Assembly: GCA_016840405.1 (NCBI GenBank)
Contig: JAEOSK010000010.1
Location: forward strand, 1-64,000
Origin: Candidatus Hermodarchaeum yapensis
GTDB taxonomy: Archaea > Asgardarchaeota > Hermodarchaeia > Hermodarchaeales > Hermodarchaeaceae
DNA length: 64,000 nucleotides
Direction of reading: 5' to 3'
Positions 1,048 to 13,920 of the stretch are shown piece by piece (the first letter of the stretch is position 1; the number at the start of each line of letters is the position of its first letter). The notes under the pieces were generated by a model. It saw nothing but the letters and a program-made list of their open reading frames with translations. It was not told the DNA's origin and did not search any database. A program made the translations under genes and the position numbers.

Positions 1048-1181
1048 GTTTTTTTACCCCGGGGTGGTCAGCGGGGCATTGGAGCGTTGTTGCGTGATTC
1101 CAGGTCGCAATGCAGTGTGAGGGTCAGATGACGCGTTCATCGGTGACCCTTTAGTGTTACCGCTCCAATTACCGCCAAACC
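1048..1181 (-). ncRNA. Putative structured 5' leader RNA (three-way junction) of the first surface-protein gene
   Basis: Perfect inverted repeats: 1078-1086/1161-1169 (9 bp, outer stem), 1120-1126/1144-1150 plus 1127-1131/1137-1141 (inner hairpin), 1090-1094/1106-1110 (second hairpin). Palindrome ACCCCGGGGT at 1056-1065 overlaps the RBS position. Confidence 0.5.
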
Positions 1182-1220
1182 GTTACTTTACGACCGGTGA
1201 GGCGCTTTAAAAACATTTAC
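1175..1220 (-). promoter_or_regulatory. Archaeal TATA promoter (TTTAAA at 1211-1206) with putative start motif GGTTTGG (1181-1175)
   Basis: The same two elements at nearly the same spacing (30 vs 29 nt) precede the paralog at 13657-13622. Confidence 0.6.
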
Positions 1221-1235
1221 CTGCATCGTTGTCTA

Positions 1236-1288
1236 AACAAAAAAGAAAAGATTGAGTGCTCAAGAGCATCCTGTGCGTCGAGCACTCA
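1236..1288 (-). terminator. Hairpin plus U-rich tract downstream of the giant gene
   Basis: 9-bp perfect stem TGAGTGCTC (1253-1261)/GAGCACTCA (1280-1288) just after the stop codon, followed on the minus strand by TCTTTTCTTTTTTGTTT. Confidence 0.7.
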
Positions 1289-1294
1289 GGAAAT

Positions 1295-4200
1295 CTACTC
1301 ATCCATGTTTGCGTTTTGTCGCAACGAATTATACGTAGCTTGGCGCTCTTCCTTACTCAGATACTTCAGGTGATCGACTAAGGCTTCCTTCTCTACATCG
1401 CTAAGATCCGGAATCTTCGCAAGCTCCCGGCGAATCTCAGCAATCACCGCAACGGGGGCGGCAGGGGCCTCTTGGAGTTCGGGAGGTAACACAGTAGGCG
1501 CGGTTCGGTCTTCCCTTTTTACCTTGGGTTCCGGTGGTTCTTCAGGCGGTACTTCTTCCAGTGGGGGCTTTTCAGGCTTAATAGAAGGTGTTTCAGGTGG
1601 AGTGGGTTTTGGTGGTGCTTTTACAGGCGCTACTTCTGGAGGTGGTGTTATCGGTTCTTCACGTTGGGTGAGGAAGTCCATCCGACGTTGACCCATCTGG
1701 CGCTTCAAGTCGTCGAGGAACCAGATCCGGTCTTTGCGAGGAATCTTTCGCATCTCGTTCGCAAGGACGGTTTTCTCTTCCGGACCTAATCCTGGAATCT
1801 TGTCCAATTCAGTCATGATGTCTTCTTCAGTGGCCGTGATTTCTTCCACTTCTTCTGTTTTTGGAATCATAGCTGATGTTGCAGCCACGCCAATCGTACC
1901 CATCGCTGTGTCTACTTTGGACTGCATGGTAACTGCACGGGCTTGGAAGCGTTTCAAGTCCTTCCGACCAAGTTTATAGCCTTCATCCTTTTCAACCGTC
2001 TTTGCGAGTTTCCGCAAACGACGTACTTCCCACGGAATTGAGTAAACACGGGCCCAGAGAATCCAGCCAATCAGCGCAATGACCACTATTACGGCACTGA
2101 TAGATCCATAGAAAATTAAGTAATTCGTGAGTTCTGTGAATTCGATATTGACAAAACTTTCAATTTGGTTGACAGGATTATAATTGAATTTCTCAGCAAT
2201 GAGAGTCAATGTAGTTGAACTGACAAAGGATGTACTAATTGTTATGTTATAAAAACCAGGATGGATTGGATCAGGATTTACCGAGATTGTTCCTCCTATA
2301 GGACCTTCATGTTCATAATTAACTTCAGCCCCAGACACTGGTGCATTGTGATATGTGTCATTTAGATAGAGTCCAAAGGAGTAGGTTGTTCCGATATAAA
2401 GTGTATTAGGAATAGGCTGGGTTAAACTGAGTTCCATTGGAATAGGACCGACTTCAAGGCTCTTGCTAGTCATTTGGTTTTCATAAAAATCTGAACGAAA
2501 TTCAATTATGAGTTCGCGGGTGGCTGATGTATTAAATTGGAAATACACAGTCCAATAGCCGAAGTCGGAATCAAAGGTGAAATCTACAGCAGTAATAAAG
2601 CTGATGGTTCTTGCTAACACCTCTTCTTCAAGGAGACTGCTATTACTCATATCCTTATAATCAAAGGTTAGGATAAGTGTATCTCCAATGGGAATGAACC
2701 AACTGGGGTTCGAATAGGGAACGGAGACATTATAGTCAATCCCATCAATTGTGACGATTGTATATGCACTTATGAGTTCTAATGTTGTTTTTGCCTTGCT
2801 GATTGTTAGAGGAACTGAAGTTGACGAGTCACTGTATTTTGAAAATATTGGATGATAGATACTAATTATCCGGGCTTGACTACTTGGAGTTTCATTGGCA
2901 GGGAACGAGCAATTATACCATCCGTCAGTACCATTTTCGATGAAATTGTATGGGATCCCTTGCCAAAGGAGATACAGCGTGTGGCCATTGATTGGATTCC
3001 ACAGACCAAAACCTCGTGTGTCATTAAGAAAGACGTTAATTATGACATTCTGCTTGTAATCCGCTGAATAAGCCGTTTCTTCGACGATAATCTCACAAGG
3101 CTTATACCTCACAGTGATTGTGAAAGTGATTTGCTGAGGGATTGTATTTGCAGCGCCAGCTGTAACGGTGATGGTTTGAGGTTGAATCCGCCAGTCAGAT
3201 GTATCGAATTCACAATAGTAGGTTCCGTCTGCTATGAAGGTGAAATTCTTCAGCACTAAGGAGGTTGAAGCATTTAGTGCGCGAATTGCGGCATTATTCA
3301 AAAAGTTCCAGAAGGTCTCATTTTCATGAACTGACCAAAAAGTCACAAAAAGAGTGATTTTGTCATCTATGTAGACTTGTATTGCAGTACTATTTCCTGT
3401 TGGAATATCGAGTCTTGTGTTTACTGCTTGAATGCTTACTGTAAAGATGAAAAATTCAGTTTCGTAGTCGGTCATGTTCGTTTGGATGATGAGTTGGGTT
3501 CCTGTTGCTTCTGCTAATCCTGTATCGAGTGTTGGAATAATAGTATAGAAGCCAGGAGTTCCCGTGTATGTCATTAATTCCCAGTCTGAAGTATACCATT
3601 TGTAGATGATTTCGGTGCCGTTGGCTGAGGTCATTGGAGTTCCGGTTAAAACATCTTCAAGGTAAACTGTGACAGGAATGAGTTCTCCCCAGTAAACAAT
3701 TATATTCTCGCCAATTGGGTCGATTTTTACCAGTGAAAGAGGTGCTTTATGGATTGTAATGTCAACATCTCTGATTTGTTCTTCATAATTTGATTTAGAA
3801 GCGGTGAGGTAGAAGGAGAACGCTCCTGCAGCGAGACCTGTTGTGTCAATCATAATTACCCAGGTTCCATCCATTCTCTGAGTATAATTGAATGTCAATC
3901 CAATATCAATAAACCAAATTACATCGGTGATATTTTCGAATCCGTGGTCTCGATCTTGGTATAACGCCTCAATAACCAGCCATTGAGAGTAGTATAGTGT
4001 AGAGGGTTGCGACCAATCGAGCGTTGTGCGAATTTCACGGACACGTGCTGAAACGAAGGTTTCTGCAGATGCATAGTATGGGAAATATTGTGGGTCAAAT
4101 CCTGTGGGCCACGTTAGTGTGATGCGGAATGAATAAGTTCCTATATCAAGATTCATACTTCCGCGAATAATTAGTGTGTAGTTACCGTCAGTTCCTGGCC

Positions 4201-10200: not shown

Positions 10201-13200
10201 TTACAAAAACGTAGAGTGAATATGTTGTAATACTATTGATCATTCCGCTGGAGTACAGGATGGTGAGGGTGTATTGGCCCCCACCATTATCGATTAGTGT
10301 ATAATCGCCACCGAGTAGGGGGGCACCATCGAGAGTGGAACCAGTGATGTTGGTGACACCAGGAATTCCTGTACCATGTTGACTACTAGCTGTATCACTG
10401 ACACGATAATAGAACGTGATAACAATATCTTCACTCCAAGGTGTTGAAGCAATGGGTTCGAAGGTAACTTGGGTGATTAATGCCCGAATCACGAAGGTAA
10501 TTTGCCTGTTATTGCCGATGTATTCAGATGAAGGCGAGATAACATACAATTGCAATGTGTAGGATTTGACGGTATTTATTCTCCCACTGGAGTACAGGAT
10601 GGTGAGGGTGTACTGACCGCCACCATTATCCACAAGGGTATATTCGCCGCCAAGGAGGGCACTTCCATCAAGCGTCGTTCCAGTCAGGCTTGTGACACCG
10701 GTGATTCCTTCTCCATCATGTGAACTATCGGGATCATCAACAGTATAATAAAACGTGATTACCTGGTCTTCACCTCGCGGTGTTGGTTGTGGTGGATCAT
10801 AGGTGATAGATGTTTCCAAAGCTCTTACATTAAAGTTGATGGATCTGGTGGCATCACTATACTTCGAATCTGCTGGTGTTACTTGAAGAAGGAGGGAGTA
10901 GGATTTTACAGAATCAATTACTCCACTTGAAGAAAGGATTGTTAGGGTATATTGACCACCTCCAAGATCTGAGAGGGAGTAATTAGTCCCTTCAGTAAGT
11001 GGAGTTCCATCAAGTTGAACAATAATCGATGCTCCGCTCAACCCAGTTCCATCATGTTGGCTGTCTGGATCATTAACGGTGTAATTAAAGGAAATCACTA
11101 CGTCTTCGTCCCAAGATACGGATCCAGGCGGTGTGTAAGTGATGGTCGTTGAGATTTCACGAATTACAATTGTAAGAACTAAAGTCTGGTTTTGATAATA
11201 ATTGAGGTCTGCTTGGATTGCAAGGGAATAGGTACCGGGTGTAGGTTTATCTGTGGTGTCTACGGTTATATTATACCATCCTGCAGTTCCGGTGGGTGTA
11301 ACAACAGTACTTGGCCATCCGGTAGTGGTAATTGTGGCTCCAGTGACCCCGGTATTGTTGTAGACATCCCAGTATTTGACTTGAACAGTGAAAACTTCAT
11401 CATAAGGGACCGTTAATCCAGGTGACTCAGGAGATGTAAGAGAGGTTCCACCTCTGATAAAGAGGTTAATTGATGTGCTCTTTGAATCGAAGTCCGTTTT
11501 ATTAGCATCAATGCTAAGTACATAATCCCCTGGCCCTAGTATATTCTTGGCAATTTGTGCCTCATAATATCCACCAGAAGCATAGAAACTGATAGGATTA
11601 CCAGAAACATTTCCGTTTACAGTTGCTCCTGTAATGGGTAGATTAGTGTCAGTATCTAAGAATTGGACACGTGGATAGAAGTAACCGGTATCTGCATAGG
11701 TGACCCACATATCTGATTCATCGGGAGTTAATGTGGTGGCATGTTCTATACTGATAATTTTTGATTGAAAGCCTGCGGAGGTGATGGAATAAGTGTCACC
11801 GTTGTCATAGCTGATGCAGAGTGTGTAATCTCCGGCTGGGTATATGGTTCCATCAGTGAATTGGATGTTCGGAAACGTGACAGTGGTACTCGTGACGGTT
11901 TGGGATGATTCATTGATAGGATATCCTGTTGGGTCGTAGAGCGTTAAGTTGGCCTGTCCAGAAGAAACCGAGATCGTAGCCTCTACTGTCAATGTTGAGG
12001 GGCTGCCTGGACTAATCCGAAAAGTGTCAAAATTCGTTGTTATAGATGATACACGGTTTGTGGAAGCAAGAGTGAAGTTCCACCAACCATATACATCATT
12101 CACAGCCGCGGTAGAAAGTTCAAAATGCGTGGCTGTAGTCGTGACTACGCTTGTGCGGTCATTGAAGAGCGCGTCTGTCACTTCATACAGAGTCCAAGTT
12201 TCCGTGGTTGGACGAATGATTGAAAGATTGTAATTTTCAAAGAAATATGGTTGATACGAATACACCCAAGTAGTCAAATAAACGGGTGTATTATTTCTTG
12301 CAACAAACTGCGTTCCATCTGGACCCACCTGTTGTTCTGTGGTTGCTTCTTTTGTTATGTATAATGTTAGATCATAATCAAAGCTTACTAATCGTGCATC
12401 ATTATCGGTTGCTTCCCAATGAGCAAGAACCTCTTCATGGACTGTAGTAGGATTCGCCCAAGTTCCAGGTACAGAATAGGTTCCAACACCATAATCTGCG
12501 GTTTGAGCAATTGTGGTGTTCATCATCAAGTCAAGCCAGATATGGTTTGGATTGACTTTTCCTCGGACTTCTAAGGTCACATCATCAAAATCGAGTGCCC
12601 AGTATTCATAATCCCATGCGGCTTGTGCACCAGTCCAAGAGAGACCTAGTCGGACATTAATGTTTCCAGGAACTGACCATGTGAGTAAATCATCATAAGG
12701 AATAGAGATATTCAAATTATACCATTGTCCGTTATTTGGACAGCGTTCATCAAGGAGCTGTCGATAGACAATTCCAGCAACTTCTGCAAAAATTACCATT
12801 CGACCGCGACCTCCACTAGAACCTGCTAAGAGGTTAACCCGTACCCTAAAGGTTAATTTTGCATATTCAGGATCATCTCGTTGAATGTTAATGGCATTTC
12901 GCCAGACAATATATTGTGTGGCATCCCAATTGAATCCGCTCCACCATTCTATCCATGTTCTTACTCCGTTTCCTGAATAACCGTACCCTGATCCCCATAG
13001 GGTTCCGTAGAATGGGTTCGTGGTATTATCTGGTGGTATGATATTGTATTGACTACTCCATGCAGTACCAATATTTTCGAAATTCCCGTTTTCTCGGCTC
13101 CCTTGCATGAAATAGGGTTGATCATAAAGGTTGTAGACGTTCGCATCAAGCTGATAACCCGTCCAGCCAGCAGGTAAGCGAATTTCACCATATTCGTCTT

Positions 13201-13495
13201 CACCATAATAAAAATCGGAAACTTGTAGCGAAAGATTGGAACCTTGGGCGTATTCGGTGGTTGATAGTGTTGTTCCCATACCTTCATACTGATATTGTCC
13301 ATCTGAATAGACGGGACCTTCAGGGAGTGGGATTGGTGAACTTTGTACTCTTGTTGCAGAGTTGGAATCAATAGGTAATGGAGGGGTTTCTTTCGCTTCA
13401 CTCAAATTAGATGAAGGAGTGATCCCTTGTGGGAAGGCGATGGAGAAAAGAAAGAGGGCTAGTAAGAAGCCTAATATGATGGGTTTTCGGTTCAT
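1295..13495 (-). CDS. Giant single-pass cell-surface protein (~4,066 aa) with tandem Ig-like repeats and a cytoplasmic tail
   Basis: Signal peptide MNRKPIILGFLLALFLFSIAF (ATG 13495 preferred over TTG 13504 by comparison with the paralog). Thr/Ser/Tyr-rich beta-strand domains and many N-x-S/T sequons. TM helix YLIFYGSISAVIVVIALIGWILW (~2054-2122), then a charged, Pro-rich tail. Confidence 0.93.
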   Translation of the reverse strand: MNRKPIILGFLLALFLFSIAFPQGITPSSNLSEAKETPPLPIDSNSATRVQSSPIPLPEGPVYSDGQYQYEGMGTTLSTTEYAQGSNLSLQVSDFYYGEDEYGEIRLPAGWTGYQLDANVYNLYDQPYFMQGSRENGNFENIGTAWSSQYNIIPPDNTTNPFYGTLWGSGYGYSGNGVRTWIEWWSGFNWDATQYIVWRNAINIQRDDPEYAKLTFRVRVNLLAGSSGGRGRMVIFAEVAGIVYRQLLDERCPNNGQWYNLNISIPYDDLLTWSVPGNINVRLGLSWTGAQAAWDYEYWALDFDDVTLEVRGKVNPNHIWLDLMMNTTIAQTADYGVGTYSVPGTWANPTTVHEEVLAHWEATDNDARLVSFDYDLTLYITKEATTEQQVGPDGTQFVARNNTPVYLTTWVYSYQPYFFENYNLSIIRPTTETWTLYEVTDALFNDRTSVVTTTATHFELSTAAVNDVYGWWNFTLASTNRVSSITTNFDTFRISPGSPSTLTVEATISVSSGQANLTLYDPTGYPINESSQTVTSTTVTFPNIQFTDGTIYPAGDYTLCISYDNGDTYSITSAGFQSKIISIEHATTLTPDESDMWVTYADTGYFYPRVQFLDTDTNLPITGATVNGNVSGNPISFYASGGYYEAQIAKNILGPGDYVLSIDANKTDFDSKSTSINLFIRGGTSLTSPESPGLTVPYDEVFTVQVKYWDVYNNTGVTGATITTTGWPSTVVTPTGTAGWYNITVDTTDKPTPGTYSLAIQADLNYYQNQTLVLTIVIREISTTITYTPPGSVSWDEDVVISFNYTVNDPDSQHDGTGLSGASIIVQLDGTPLTEGTNYSLSDLGGGQYTLTILSSSGVIDSVKSYSLLLQVTPADSKYSDATRSINFNVRALETSITYDPPQPTPRGEDQVITFYYTVDDPDSSHDGEGITGVTSLTGTTLDGSALLGGEYTLVDNGGGQYTLTILYSSGRINTVKSYTLQLYVISPSSEYIGNNRQITFVIRALITQVTFEPIASTPWSEDIVITFYYRVSDTASSQHGTGIPGVTNITGSTLDGAPLLGGDYTLIDNGGGQYTLTILYSSGMINSITTYSLYVFVNTPDTQHENAAQTTSFTVRTLATQITYNPVIPVPWSENVIITFYYSVNDPASSQHGNGITGVTDISGSTLDGTPLTGGDYTLVDNGGGQYTLTILYSSGLITSIKTYSLYIYVNSPDSQHDDANQTIGFSIRAIQTFVTYDAVSPTPYGEDGEIIFYYTVNDPTSSQDGTGIPGVTDITGSTLDAIALDPGDYTLVDNGGGQYTLTILYSSGLVNSIKTYSLYIYVNSPDAQHEDATQTLSFTIRSLRTSISFDPIPQTPWGEDVIITFYYVINDLDSSNDGTGITGVTSITGSTLEAVALNPGEYTLVDNGGGQYTLTILYSSGVISNIQSYSLALHVDSPSTEYDSADRTTTFTVRVLGTKISYTPPLPTPWGQDVVIIVFYLVEDTSSAQHGNGITGVTSITGSTLDGAPLIAGDFTLVDNGVGQYTLTILYSSGRLSSIKTYTLELHFDAPAVQYDAADQTITFDIRTLTTQVTIDPPTQTPWSDDVIITFYYRVSDLASTQHGNGITGVTNIAGSTLDAVLLDPGDFTFVDNGGGQYTLTILYSSGKINTVQSYSLYLYVNSPDAQHDDANQIITFDVRTLATEITYDPVIPVPWSEDVVIIFYYKVNDPSSSHHGNGISGVTSIAGSQLDGAPLLVTDYTFEDNGGGQYTLTLLFTSGIINNIKTYTLDLHVVAPDSQHDDADQTITFEIRTIRTFITYDAVSPTPYGEDVEIIFYYTVNDPTSSQDGSGITSVTSITGSTLDAVALDPGDYTLVDNGGGQYTLTILFSSGKLSSVKLYSLIVFVVSPDAQHENASQTISFSVRTLRTSISFDPIPQTPWGEDVVITFYYIINDLDSSNDGTGIIAVTSITGSTLDAVALNPGEYTLVDDGGGQYTLTILFSSGVISSIKSYSMALHVVAPSAEYDTADRTTSFTVRLLGTKITYTPPLPTPWGQDVVITVFYLVEDTSSAQHGNGIIGVTSISGSTLDAIALVSGDYSLVDNGGGQYTLTLLYSSGKLSSIRTYTLELHFDAPAAQYDDADQTITFDIRALTTHVTIDPPSPTPWGDDVVITFYYRVSDLASIQHGNGITGLTDISGSTLNAVGLVGTDYTLVDEGAGQYTLTILNSSARINNIQSYTLYLYVNKPAANYDDADRSVQFDVRSIVTLINYTPTPPVPRGTNVVIIFNYQVNDPASSQHGIGITGITSLAGSLLEGGALNPGDYTLVDNGGGQYTLTILFSSGRISSIQTYSLDLYVNSPDTQHDDASINIGFEIRTIRTAIIYDPVGSTAWGLDVIIVFNYIVDDSASGEDGNGITGVTSIAGTLLDGSVLDPGDYTLVDNGGGQYTLTILYSSGKISIVKIYSLALHVIAPDAYHQNADQTIGFRIRNHYIASDIDPITTIPWQNNGSMVLRVDDDDEPGTSFPDADLIAIRILGPTTLFIDSGNWTQWVENGLPDDGIFTVTIDTTGWALGTHALDIYVYTSASYENDTVYTAATIRALATSFTYQSPPVVAWGEDGILEVNYTVSDTIAFQNGDPITGATISIATLTLGVNFTFLDNADGTYTITIFATELPTNQTYFFDILISSPAQFTNRELSNVPITVRALFTTLAYSRVPTTPYGDNVTVDVQYFILDGQSSNNGAFISGATITVTGIGGLVLLPSDYSVTPYPGYYRITITKALGIESYEIEVDAYHPTDPYRSARIANPPMSFNIRTVYTEIEKEPVDAAPYGEDFYITIIYRVRDDASSQDGDGITGSDQNTIFTNGSWSNPSFSLSDLGNGQYLITINSNQTPSPGSYWINITLGWIADPSDYEEQWVGVWLTSETRETRIINTNPPDTNYADNVIVYLNYTDVLDDWGIDNLTTGTYVRIRILHAANDSEISATYYIEDITFGAGWSEPTLYYRVLINASELGAVNIIFNLKIEASWIGGNAPFYTIATKAFSVRTVGTETILYSETIQTEPTGDDIIINLHYETTGGGLITNGSEYVGILVECDDITGWNDSYWYVPASSWPGTDGNYTLIIRGSMNLDIGTYSFRITLTWPTGFDPQYFPYYASAETFVSARVREIRTTLDWSQPSTLYYSQWLVIEALYQDRDHGFENITDVIWFIDIGLTFNYTQRMDGTWVIMIDTTGLAAGAFSFYLTASKSNYEEQIRDVDITIHKAPLSLVKIDPIGENIIVYWGELIPVTVYLEDVLTGTPMTSANGTEIIYKWYTSDWELMTYTGTPGFYTIIPTLDTGLAEATGTQLIIQTNMTDYETEFFIFTVSIQAVNTRLDIPTGNSTAIQVYIDDKITLFVTFWSVHENETFWNFLNNAAIRALNASTSLVLKNFTFIADGTYYCEFDTSDWRIQPQTITVTAGAANTIPQQITFTITVRYKPCEIIVEETAYSADYKQNVIINVFLNDTRGFGLWNPINGHTLYLLWQGIPYNFIENGTDGWYNCSFPANETPSSQARIISIYHPIFSKYSDSSTSVPLTISKAKTTLELISAYTIVTIDGIDYNVSVPYSNPSWFIPIGDTLILTFDYKDMSNSSLLEEEVLARTISFITAVDFTFDSDFGYWTVYFQFNTSATRELIIEFRSDFYENQMTSKSLEVGPIPMELSLTQPIPNTLYIGTTYSFGLYLNDTYHNAPVSGAEVNYEHEGPIGGTISVNPDPIHPGFYNITISTSFVSSTTLTLIAEKFNYNPVNQIESFVNIEFTELTNYLIFYGSISAVIVVIALIGWILWARVYSIPWEVRRLRKLAKTVEKDEGYKLGRKDLKRFQARAVTMQSKVDTAMGTIGVAATSAMIPKTEEVEEITATEEDIMTELDKIPGLGPEEKTVLANEMRKIPRKDRIWFLDDLKRQMGQRRMDFLTQREEPITPPPEVAPVKAPPKPTPPETPSIKPEKPPLEEVPPEEPPEPKVKREDRTAPTVLPPELQEAPAAPVAVIAEIRRELAKIPDLSDVEKEALVDHLKYLSKEERQATYNSLRQNANMDE
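6080..11161 (-). repeat. Intragenic tandem array of 15 x ~339 bp (113 aa) with a 5-unit (1,695-bp) super-repeat
   Basis: The motif DNGGGQYTLTILYSSG or a close variant occurs 15 times at ~339-bp spacing. A 51-bp identical stretch lies at 8001-8051 and 9696-9746 (offset 1,695 = 5 x 339). Confidence 0.95.
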
Positions 13496-13628
13496 GTTTG
13501 TCAATCCCGGGGGTGCACGGTATCATGTTAAAGCGGAACCTTCGAAGCTCAACCGGTTGATGTGAGTCTGTTGTGAACTCTGCTCCCTGTTTTGGATTAT
13601 GAAGTTGTCCGCTTTCTGTAACCAAACC
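13496..13628 (-). ncRNA. Putative structured 5' leader RNA of the giant gene
   Basis: Outer stem AAAGCGGA (13530-13537)/TCCGCTTT (13608-13615), extendable by GTTA/TAAC and CTTC/GAAG. It encloses the palindrome TCAACCGGTTGA (13549-13560) and GAGT/ACTC (13564-13580). CCCGGG lies at the RBS position. Confidence 0.4.
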
Positions 13629-13667
13629 ACAAAGAACCGAATATGTGACGTTTTAAATACGTTTAGC
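13622..13667 (-). promoter_or_regulatory. Archaeal TATA promoter (TTTAAA at 13657-13652) with putative start motif GGTTTGG (13628-13622)
   Basis: Matches the arrangement upstream of the paralog at 1211-1175. Confidence 0.6.
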
Positions 13668-13920
13668 TGGTTTGATGGTTATTTGATTAGACGCTGTTTG
13701 CTATAAAGGGTTAAAAGCACAGACTCTCCAAACCAGTCTAATTCGAAGGCTTTTTCTCATTTTTTGCGTTCATTTCCTCCTTGTGACCACGAATCTGGTC
13801 AGATTTTCACAGATATTATATGTACGCTGACCACACCCAATGAATAATGGGGATGAACTTCCCCGATTAATCGCCATAACCGGTCGAGGAACGACTTGTG
13901 AATTCAACGAATGAGAGTAG

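Follow-up and report, generated by a model that had tools for sequence, protein, structure and literature searches.

Two giant paralogous genes and what precedes them

What stands in front of the very large genes at the start of this contig: a promoter, an untranslated leader, or a regulatory RNA of a new kind? The window, by which we mean the whole 64,000-nt stretch of Candidatus Hermodarchaeum yapensis DNA under analysis, opens with two giant paralogs on the minus strand, here called gene 1 and gene 2 (Table 1). The initial annotation, made from the letters of the window, had proposed that both begin with equal-length structured leaders that together represent a new cis-regulatory RNA. We find that a promoter-plus-long-leader module in front of these genes is real and is conserved across the genus, but that much of what the two paralogs share is a DNA promoter element and not RNA. 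The upstream interval very probably consists of a promoter and a 5' untranslated region, while its reading as a new riboswitch-like RNA does not hold up.

Gene 1 encodes a giant secreted, membrane-anchored surface protein. The N-terminal regions of the gene 1 and gene 2 products are 35% identical across 340 aa, and signal-peptide-like N-termini can be recognized in the sequences of the giant paralog proteins. Pfam is nearly empty for the 4066-aa product of gene 2, with a single weak match of 12 residues to PF19079 (Collagen-flanked surface repeat, E = 7.8e-8), and the N-terminal 1165 aa of this protein are without any Pfam match. The N-terminal domain has homologs in 10 of 14 further genomes of the genus and in three of four from the sister genus. 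A metagenome protein from ENA (P0001, 890 aa, encoded on a contig of 3327 nt) shares 91% identity with the product of the truncated gene 1, and the closest available copy of leader 1 probably lies on that same contig.

The stop codon of gene 2 is followed by a hairpin and a T-rich run, which from their sequence are likely an archaeal terminator. Similar hairpin-plus-T runs are found ahead of the promoter at several related loci. Scanning positions 900-1500 for bacterial-type terminators and promoters, with a strict loop rule, gave no match.

A promoter module dedicated to the giant paralogs

The landmarks on which the initial annotation was built are all correct. TTTAAA at 1211-1206 is followed 30 nt later by GGTTTGG (1181-1175), from which 134 nt lead to the ATG at 1047; ahead of gene 2, TTTAAA at 13657-13652 is followed 29 nt later by GGTTTGG (13628-13622), with 133 nt to the ATG at 13495. 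The leader ends CACCCCGGGG..AAACATG and CACCCCCGGG..AAACATG are also present as described. These landmarks belong to a module of ~76 nt, in which TTGnnTAGA (~-59 from the predicted start), the BRE-like CAGNTAAA, TnTTTAAA, GCGTC and finally C|GGTTTGGC follow one another in fixed order. Across an alignment of 16 sites, the distance from CAG to GGTTTGG is held at 42 nt (41 in leader 2).

How widely is the module used? A degenerate 23-nt pattern, CAGNTAAANNTWTWTAARNCGYY, has 16 matches in nine of the 15 genus genomes and never more than two per genome, and all 16 lie 154-176 nt upstream of a gene of the giant-paralog family. The same pattern has no match in the sister genus, and reversed-pattern controls gave none either. 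Within the organism's own genome it returns only the two sites of the window, and a promoter HMM run across the 2.7-Mb assembly returned the same two, with the next best hit at E = 1.7. The module is therefore not the organism's general promoter consensus, but is dedicated to the two giant paralogs. Between these it is ~75% identical, the proteins having diverged to ~35%. The simpler arrangement TTTAAA-N22-26-GGTTTGG occurs three times in the 2.7-Mb genome, compared to once for a reversed control, so that the two motifs come together more often than chance would have them; its third occurrence (contig C76:41991-42026, L008) falls inside a coding region without promoter context and was discarded as a chance match. 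When metagenomes were scanned with the 23-nt pattern, the matches listed were mostly chance AT-rich sequence, and at least two were true sites. In promoter-HMM score these two equal two loci from our own set, and presumably the DNA is the same.

The sequence has the layout of an archaeal core promoter: TTTAAA occupies -30 to -25 relative to the G of GGTTTGG, the purine-rich, BRE-like CAGNTAAA stands just upstream of it, and there is a C at -1, so that the TATA centre falls ~27 nt before a pyrimidine-purine step, C|G. Unlike archaeal core promoters at large, this one has extra conserved blocks, namely TTGnnTAGA at ~-59, GCGTC after the TATA box and GGTTTGGC at +1 to +8, and it is specific to two genes per genome.

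The TATA spacing places the predicted transcription start at the G of GGTTTGG. The spacing from TATA to GGTTTGG is constant over the 16 sites, which fits a start at this G. Leaders predicted in this way are 112-134 nt long in the 15 loci where they are complete. Genome-wide, TATA-like hexamers ahead of long ORFs peak at -50 to -41 from the ATG (~45 nt), and SD-like motifs peak at -13/-12; the position of the TATA peak suggests that typical leaders in this organism measure a few tens of nucleotides and that those of the giant genes are several times longer. Homologous genes of the sister genus have a different conserved TATA at ~-215, so long leaders would seem to be a family trait of the giant genes.

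The sister-genus homologs (L016-L018) lack the module itself. They have another conserved block, CAATATAAA..CTGnTAAAGnTATTTATA followed by GCGGTGGATTC, at ~-230 to -170 from the ATG, and its placement implies leaders that may be longer still, at ~180 nt.

Table 1. Positions in the window of the two giant genes and of the sequence elements discussed in the text. MFE, minimum free energy fold.
Feature	Position	Strand	Sequence and remarks
Gene 1	ATG 1047	-	Cut by contig end; product truncated
Gene 2	ATG 13495 to TAG stop 1297-1295	-	4066 aa; upstream paralog of gene 1
Gene 2 3' end	1229-1297	-	Stop TAG 1297-1295; hairpin arms GAGTGCTC (1287-1280) and GAGCACTC (1261-1254); T-rich run 1249-1235
Distal promoter element, gene 1	1232-1240	-	TTGTTTAGA; ~-59 to -51 from predicted start; consensus TTGnnTAnA from start-anchored alignment of 16 sites
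Core promoter, gene 1	1201-1223	-	BRE-like CAGGTAAA (1223-1216); TATA box TTTTTAAA (1213-1206); conserved GCGCC (1205-1201)
Core promoter, gene 2	13647-13669	-	CAGCTAAA; TATA (TTTAAA 13657-13652); ACGTC
Predicted start and conserved 5'-terminal motif, gene 1	1172-1181	-	Start G 1181; GGTTTGGCGG; 5' arm of outermost helix, pairs with 1074-1066 (MFE)
Predicted 5' untranslated leader 1	1048-1181	-	134 nt; gene 1, ATG 1047
Predicted leader 2	13496-13628	-	133 nt; 4066-aa gene; GGTTTGG 13628-13622; CCCCCGGG box near 13518-13511
Leader 1, 9-bp stem, 5' arm	1161-1169	-	ATTGGAGCG; pairs with CGCTCCAAT (1086-1078) (MFE)
Leader 1, hairpin	1120-1150	-	AGGGTCA-CC-GATGA-loop-TCATC-TGACCCT (MFE); unconserved among orthologs
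Leader 1, hairpin	1090-1110	-	TTGCG-loop-CGCAA (MFE); unconserved among orthologs
Leader 1, 3' arms of closing helices	1066-1086	-	CGCTCCAAT (1086-1078) and CCGCTGACC (1074-1066)
Leader 1, palindrome	1056-1065	-	ACCCCGGGGT; contains SD-like GGGGT at -13 to -9

A three-way junction confined to leader 1 of this genome

Leader 1 had been described as a clean three-way junction with four perfect helices. The four helices are present and are reproduced by the minimum free energy (MFE) fold, which adds an outermost one beyond them, pairing GGUU.GGCGG with CCGCUGACC at -27 to -19. This fold (RNAfold) has an energy of -45.6 kcal/mol and a z of -3.25, and none of 200 dinucleotide shuffles folds as well; an independent shuffle run gave a z of -2.97, and the antisense strand gave -2.0. 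Leader 2 has an MFE of -26.1 kcal/mol at a z of +0.36, matched by 125 of 200 shuffles, and contains an 8-bp stem between AAAGCGGA (13615-13608) and TCCGCTTT (13537-13530), which as RNA reads AAAGCGGA/UCCGCUUU. Given the z of leader 2, the claim of structured leaders on both paralogs is true of one leader only, leader 1 with its z of about -3. The folding z of the other 14 leaders ranges from -1.25 to +1.9, no better than shuffles, and the expectation of folding beyond dinucleotide shuffles was thus borne out by leader 1 but not by the remaining 14 of the 15, leader 2 included.

What, then, do the 15 homologous leaders have in common? Conserved across the genus are the promoter module, its fixed geometry, the length of the leader, the opening 8-12 nt of the transcript and a Shine-Dalgarno (SD) box that is palindromic. 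As the initial annotation had remarked for the two paralogs, the interiors share no evident sequence; they are unalignable even between orthologs whose proteins are 67-74% identical. MAFFT and RNAalifold applied to all 15 leaders returned no consensus pairs, because interiors of this kind cannot be aligned. In the closest available ortholog (74% identical), nothing corresponds to the three-way junction of leader 1; the junction is private to this genome. The broader idea of conserved length and topology without conserved sequence survives for length, at 112-134 nt around diverged interiors, but not for topology, and its premise fails at the promoter, at the 5'-terminal 8-12 nt and at the SD box, all of which are conserved in sequence.

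No known riboswitch had been recognized in leader 1, and no Rfam match was expected. Rfam 15, searched at gathering thresholds over the whole 64-kb window, gave no match, and when six promoter/leader loci were searched at E<=1, the only match was a weak and unrelated one to sR35, outside any leader. A search of the organism's own genome for further leader copies, or for trans partners of the leader motifs, found none.

Several more specific candidates were considered and rejected. For a riboswitch, a conserved ligand-binding core would be looked for; the interiors are unalignable, RNAalifold on the 15 leaders gave no pairs, and the 74% identical ortholog lacks the junction. A uORF of 28 codons (MNASSDPH...TTPG, 1054-1140, minus strand) is present in leader 1; its TAA overlaps the SD and ends 6 nt short of the main ATG. 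Two other leaders have similar uORF ends, but the presence, position, frame and peptide of the uORFs vary across the 15, and control by a leader peptide was rejected. The hairpin of leader 1 also contains GAUGA...CUGA, reminiscent of a C/D box or K-turn; the boxes are only ~9 nt apart, which is not the guide-length spacing of such elements, and are themselves part of a Watson-Crick stem, the arrangement is not conserved, and there is no C/D match in Rfam. With no conserved interior, no conserved uORF and no Rfam match, a riboswitch-like reading is unsupported.

A possible pairing of the two leader ends

One element of the proposed fold does recur. An outer stem had been suggested for each leader, and stems that connect the 5' end with sequence ahead of the SD are found repeatedly among the leaders: over the 15, the first ~22 nt tend to pair with -50 to -15. 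In partition function calculations, the expected number of pairs between nt 1-12 and the final 55 nt averages 6.4, compared to 3.6 when the rest is shuffled, and 12 of the 15 leaders lie above their shuffle mean. Averaged over the first 10 nt, the probability of being unpaired is 0.26, compared to 0.47 in the interior. The duplex of nt 1-14 with -52 to -13 is stronger than that with every interior window in all 15 leaders, and in 12 of them it ranks with the top 10% of random genomic windows; for six leaders the cognate 3' window ranks top among all 15 such windows.

Composition-preserving shuffles lower these figures. Over nt 1-24, z averages -1.3, being negative in 13 of the 15 leaders and significant at p<0.05 in four, and p-values combined over the set overstate the signal because the 15 sequences are related. 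For nt 1-14 the window's two leaders have z of 0.01 and +0.76, which is chance level. Leader 1 reaches a z of -2.96 over nt 1-24, a stretch that includes its 9-bp stem, and its closure is significant only once that stem is counted.

Applied class by class, RNAalifold returned the closing helix independently for two classes of leader. In class A (five sequences), 88% of the helix cells are paired, compared to 27-49% when the arms are slid against each other, three pairs are changed on both sides, and the covariation score is matched by four of 500 shuffles. The class B helix is paired in 95% of cells, compared to 48-68% when slid, and no covariation was found in it. The compensatory changes that had been anticipated in homologous leaders are accordingly seen in the closing helix of one class, represented by five sequences, but not elsewhere. 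Equivalent stems, of differing sequence, connect +13 to +21 with ~-42 to -31: AUUGGAGCG/CGCUCCAAU in leader 1, AAAGCGGA/UCCGCUUU in leader 2 and GGAA/UUCC in class B.

We also compared duplexes on the two strands. Class A favours the sense strand, and the helix of class A and of G010/G011_C37 relies on G-U pairs and is better on that strand. In class B, pairing on the antisense strand equals or exceeds that on the sense strand, and the complementarity there may come from a DNA inverted repeat. Taking these results together, the balance tips somewhat toward a selected RNA closing helix.

The leader classes do not track the protein phylogeny, as judged against a tree of N-terminal domains (loci L009-L028). 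Class A leaders, those of the CCTCGAGG type, precede the clade I genes G006a, G012a and G014_C20 as well as clade III genes (both G007 copies), and the clade I genes G000_g1 and G011_C37 have leaders of other types. The mismatch suggests recombination or gene conversion between the promoter/leader and the coding region.

A palindrome over the Shine-Dalgarno sequence

Immediately before the coding sequence, GGGGT or GAGGT at -13 to -9 fits the 3' end of the 16S rRNA (...GGATCACCTCCT / ...GGAUCACCUCCU). In eight of the 15 leaders this SD is covered by a perfect palindrome of 8-10 nt at -20 to -17; a 30-mer drawn at random from this genome contains a palindrome of at least 8 nt with a probability of 0.07. 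The sites are at 1056-1065 and 13511-13518 in the window and at -20 to -9 in L011-L013, L015, L025, L049 and L056. They take the forms (A)CCCCGGGG(T), (A)CCTCGAGG(T) and CCAATTGG, the inner bases changing symmetrically, and two further leaders have CCCGGG at the same position. Of the two halves of the palindrome, the right one is the SD and the left one is similar to an anti-SD. In its 10-nt form it could fold only into a mini-hairpin of 3 bp, and the mean unpaired probability of the SD is 0.37, so that it is neither especially exposed nor hidden.

Competing readings of the module

How might these features work together? The reading we favour, which is tentative and slightly more apt to be wrong than right, is that of a dedicated promoter joined to a long 5' UTR whose sequestered 5' end has an mRNA-stabilising role. 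On this reading the interval 1048-1223 on the minus strand would comprise a dedicated archaeal promoter (distal element, BRE, TATA and start region) and the whole leader of gene 1. Transcription would begin at the G of GGTTTGG, and the first ~22 nt would pair with the C-rich segment at -50 to -15, so that the 5' end is enclosed in a panhandle immediately ahead of the ribosome-binding site. Such a panhandle could protect mRNAs of at least 12 kb from decay that depends on the 5' end, and might tune ribosome loading. The variable interior would then be filler, and the three-way junction of leader 1 a lineage-specific filling of the loop and not a functional core.

Much of the same evidence could be read at the level of DNA only. 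The conserved core would then be a promoter from -62 to +12 with regulator sites, among them an operator over the start; the SD palindrome (8-10 bp) and the inverted repeat between the start and -45 to -15 would be further operators, possibly looped, with the interior as a length-constrained spacer and the fold of leader 1 incidental. Conservation is indeed at its highest at the predicted start and in the rigidly spaced sequence ahead of it; the first 8 nt hardly vary, although the RNA segments they should pair with do; eight of the 15 leaders have a perfect palindrome at one set position; most leaders have no thermodynamic signal; and the antisense complementarity of class B is what a DNA inverted repeat predicts. 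However, operators 100 nt downstream of an archaeal start are unusual, and the G-U-dependent helix of class A and G010/G011_C37, better on the sense strand, speaks for RNA. The 3' arms differ by class yet complement the local 5' arm, which a protein site would not need, and the symmetric inner changes of the palindrome (CCCCGGGG, CCTCGAGG, CCAATTGG) look more like pairing than half-site recognition. We regard this DNA-level account as credible but unlikely. It is rather unlikely, too, that the promoter is real and the long leader has no specific structural function, the complementarity coming from a G-rich start and a C-rich pre-SD region and the junction being a chance or neutral feature picked by eye from 64 kb. 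That account draws on the loss of the nt 1-14 signal under composition-preserving shuffles in both window leaders, on the mere four of 15 leaders significant in the 24-nt test, on the global alignment without structure and the unconserved junction, and on the modest surprise of a single z of about -3, spotted by eye, among 15 leaders. It has to contend with a length kept at 112-134 nt despite complete turnover of the interior, with the negative mean z and its 13 negative values, with the six leaders whose cognate 3' window is the best of 15, and with the compensatory changes of class A.

Readings that assign a specific regulatory device to the leader fare less well. An undescribed, Asgard-specific cis-acting leader, composed of the GGUUUGG tag, the panhandle and the self-complementary SD box (CCNN|NNGG), might be read by a dedicated factor or through RNA-RNA pairing between paralogs, and might co-ordinate or switch the two giant surface proteins while being swapped between paralogs by recombination; we consider this improbable. 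A riboswitch-like or protein-binding RNA with a conserved three-dimensional core, or a uORF attenuator, is highly improbable. The stable three-way junction of leader 1 and the uORF that ends 6 nt before its ATG would suit it, but it is largely refuted by interiors that conserve neither sequence nor structure over 15 leaders, by uORFs that differ in presence, position, frame and peptide, and by the lack of an Rfam match even at E<=1.

Relation to known leaders and significance

The nearest archaeal parallel is the Methanosarcina S-layer gene slmA1, which has a TATA promoter, a mapped 5' end and, in M. barkeri, a 154-nt UTR of unknown role (PMC3361143). Its promoter and UTR are conserved between species, the UTR at >91%, and secondary structures have been predicted in it (PMC3361143). 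Like the genes described here, slmA1 is an archaeal gene for a major cell-surface protein with a TATA promoter and a long leader. It belongs to another phylum, has no sequence similarity to our loci and has mapped 5' ends, whereas the start here is inferred and only the ends of the leader are conserved.

Bacterial envelope genes offer a second comparison. In E. coli, ompA has a 133-nt 5' leader that stabilises its mRNA. The long 5' UTR of Lactobacillus slpA forms a stabilising structure, and transcript half-lives are 14-15 min (PMC3666127). The proposed likeness lies in a leader of ~130 nt, a gene for an envelope protein, abundant in the bacterial examples and perhaps so in ours, and a base-paired 5' end, which is what would shield the mRNA from 5'-end-dependent decay; both the start and the pairing are predictions in our case. 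The bacterial examples differ in having measured half-lives, known nucleases and a local 5' hairpin, in place of the long-range panhandle predicted here. The mRNA decay enzymes of archaea also differ from those of bacteria, being of the RNase J/aCPSF type. With the riboswitch and other cis-regulatory families of Rfam the module shares its location in a 5' leader and, in leader 1, a multi-helix junction; it differs from the riboswitch families in having no match among them and in that the homologous leaders are without a conserved core sequence or junction.

To our knowledge, almost nothing is known of promoters, leaders or post-transcriptional control in Asgard archaea, most lineages of which are uncultured. 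The locus provides a well-defined promoter and leader, conserved across a genus and driving the largest genes of the genome, and metatranscriptome studies that set out to map the 5' ends of transcripts could aim at it directly. It may further serve as a strong expression module, and it lends itself to asking how mRNAs of at least 12 kb stay intact in archaea. The palindromic SD box, as a recurring feature, is worth specialist attention.

The helix-45 loop of 16S rRNA is normally invariant. In this genome the 3' end of the 16S gene, which lies outside the window on the minus strand of contig C71 (reverse-complement offset ~12099-12190), reads ...GTAGCCGTAGGGGAA, then ~31 extra nt (TAAATCGGAGATACGGTCTCCGGTTTCCCTAG), then CCTGCGGCTGGATCACCTCCT, and the extra stretch looks like an insertion in that loop.
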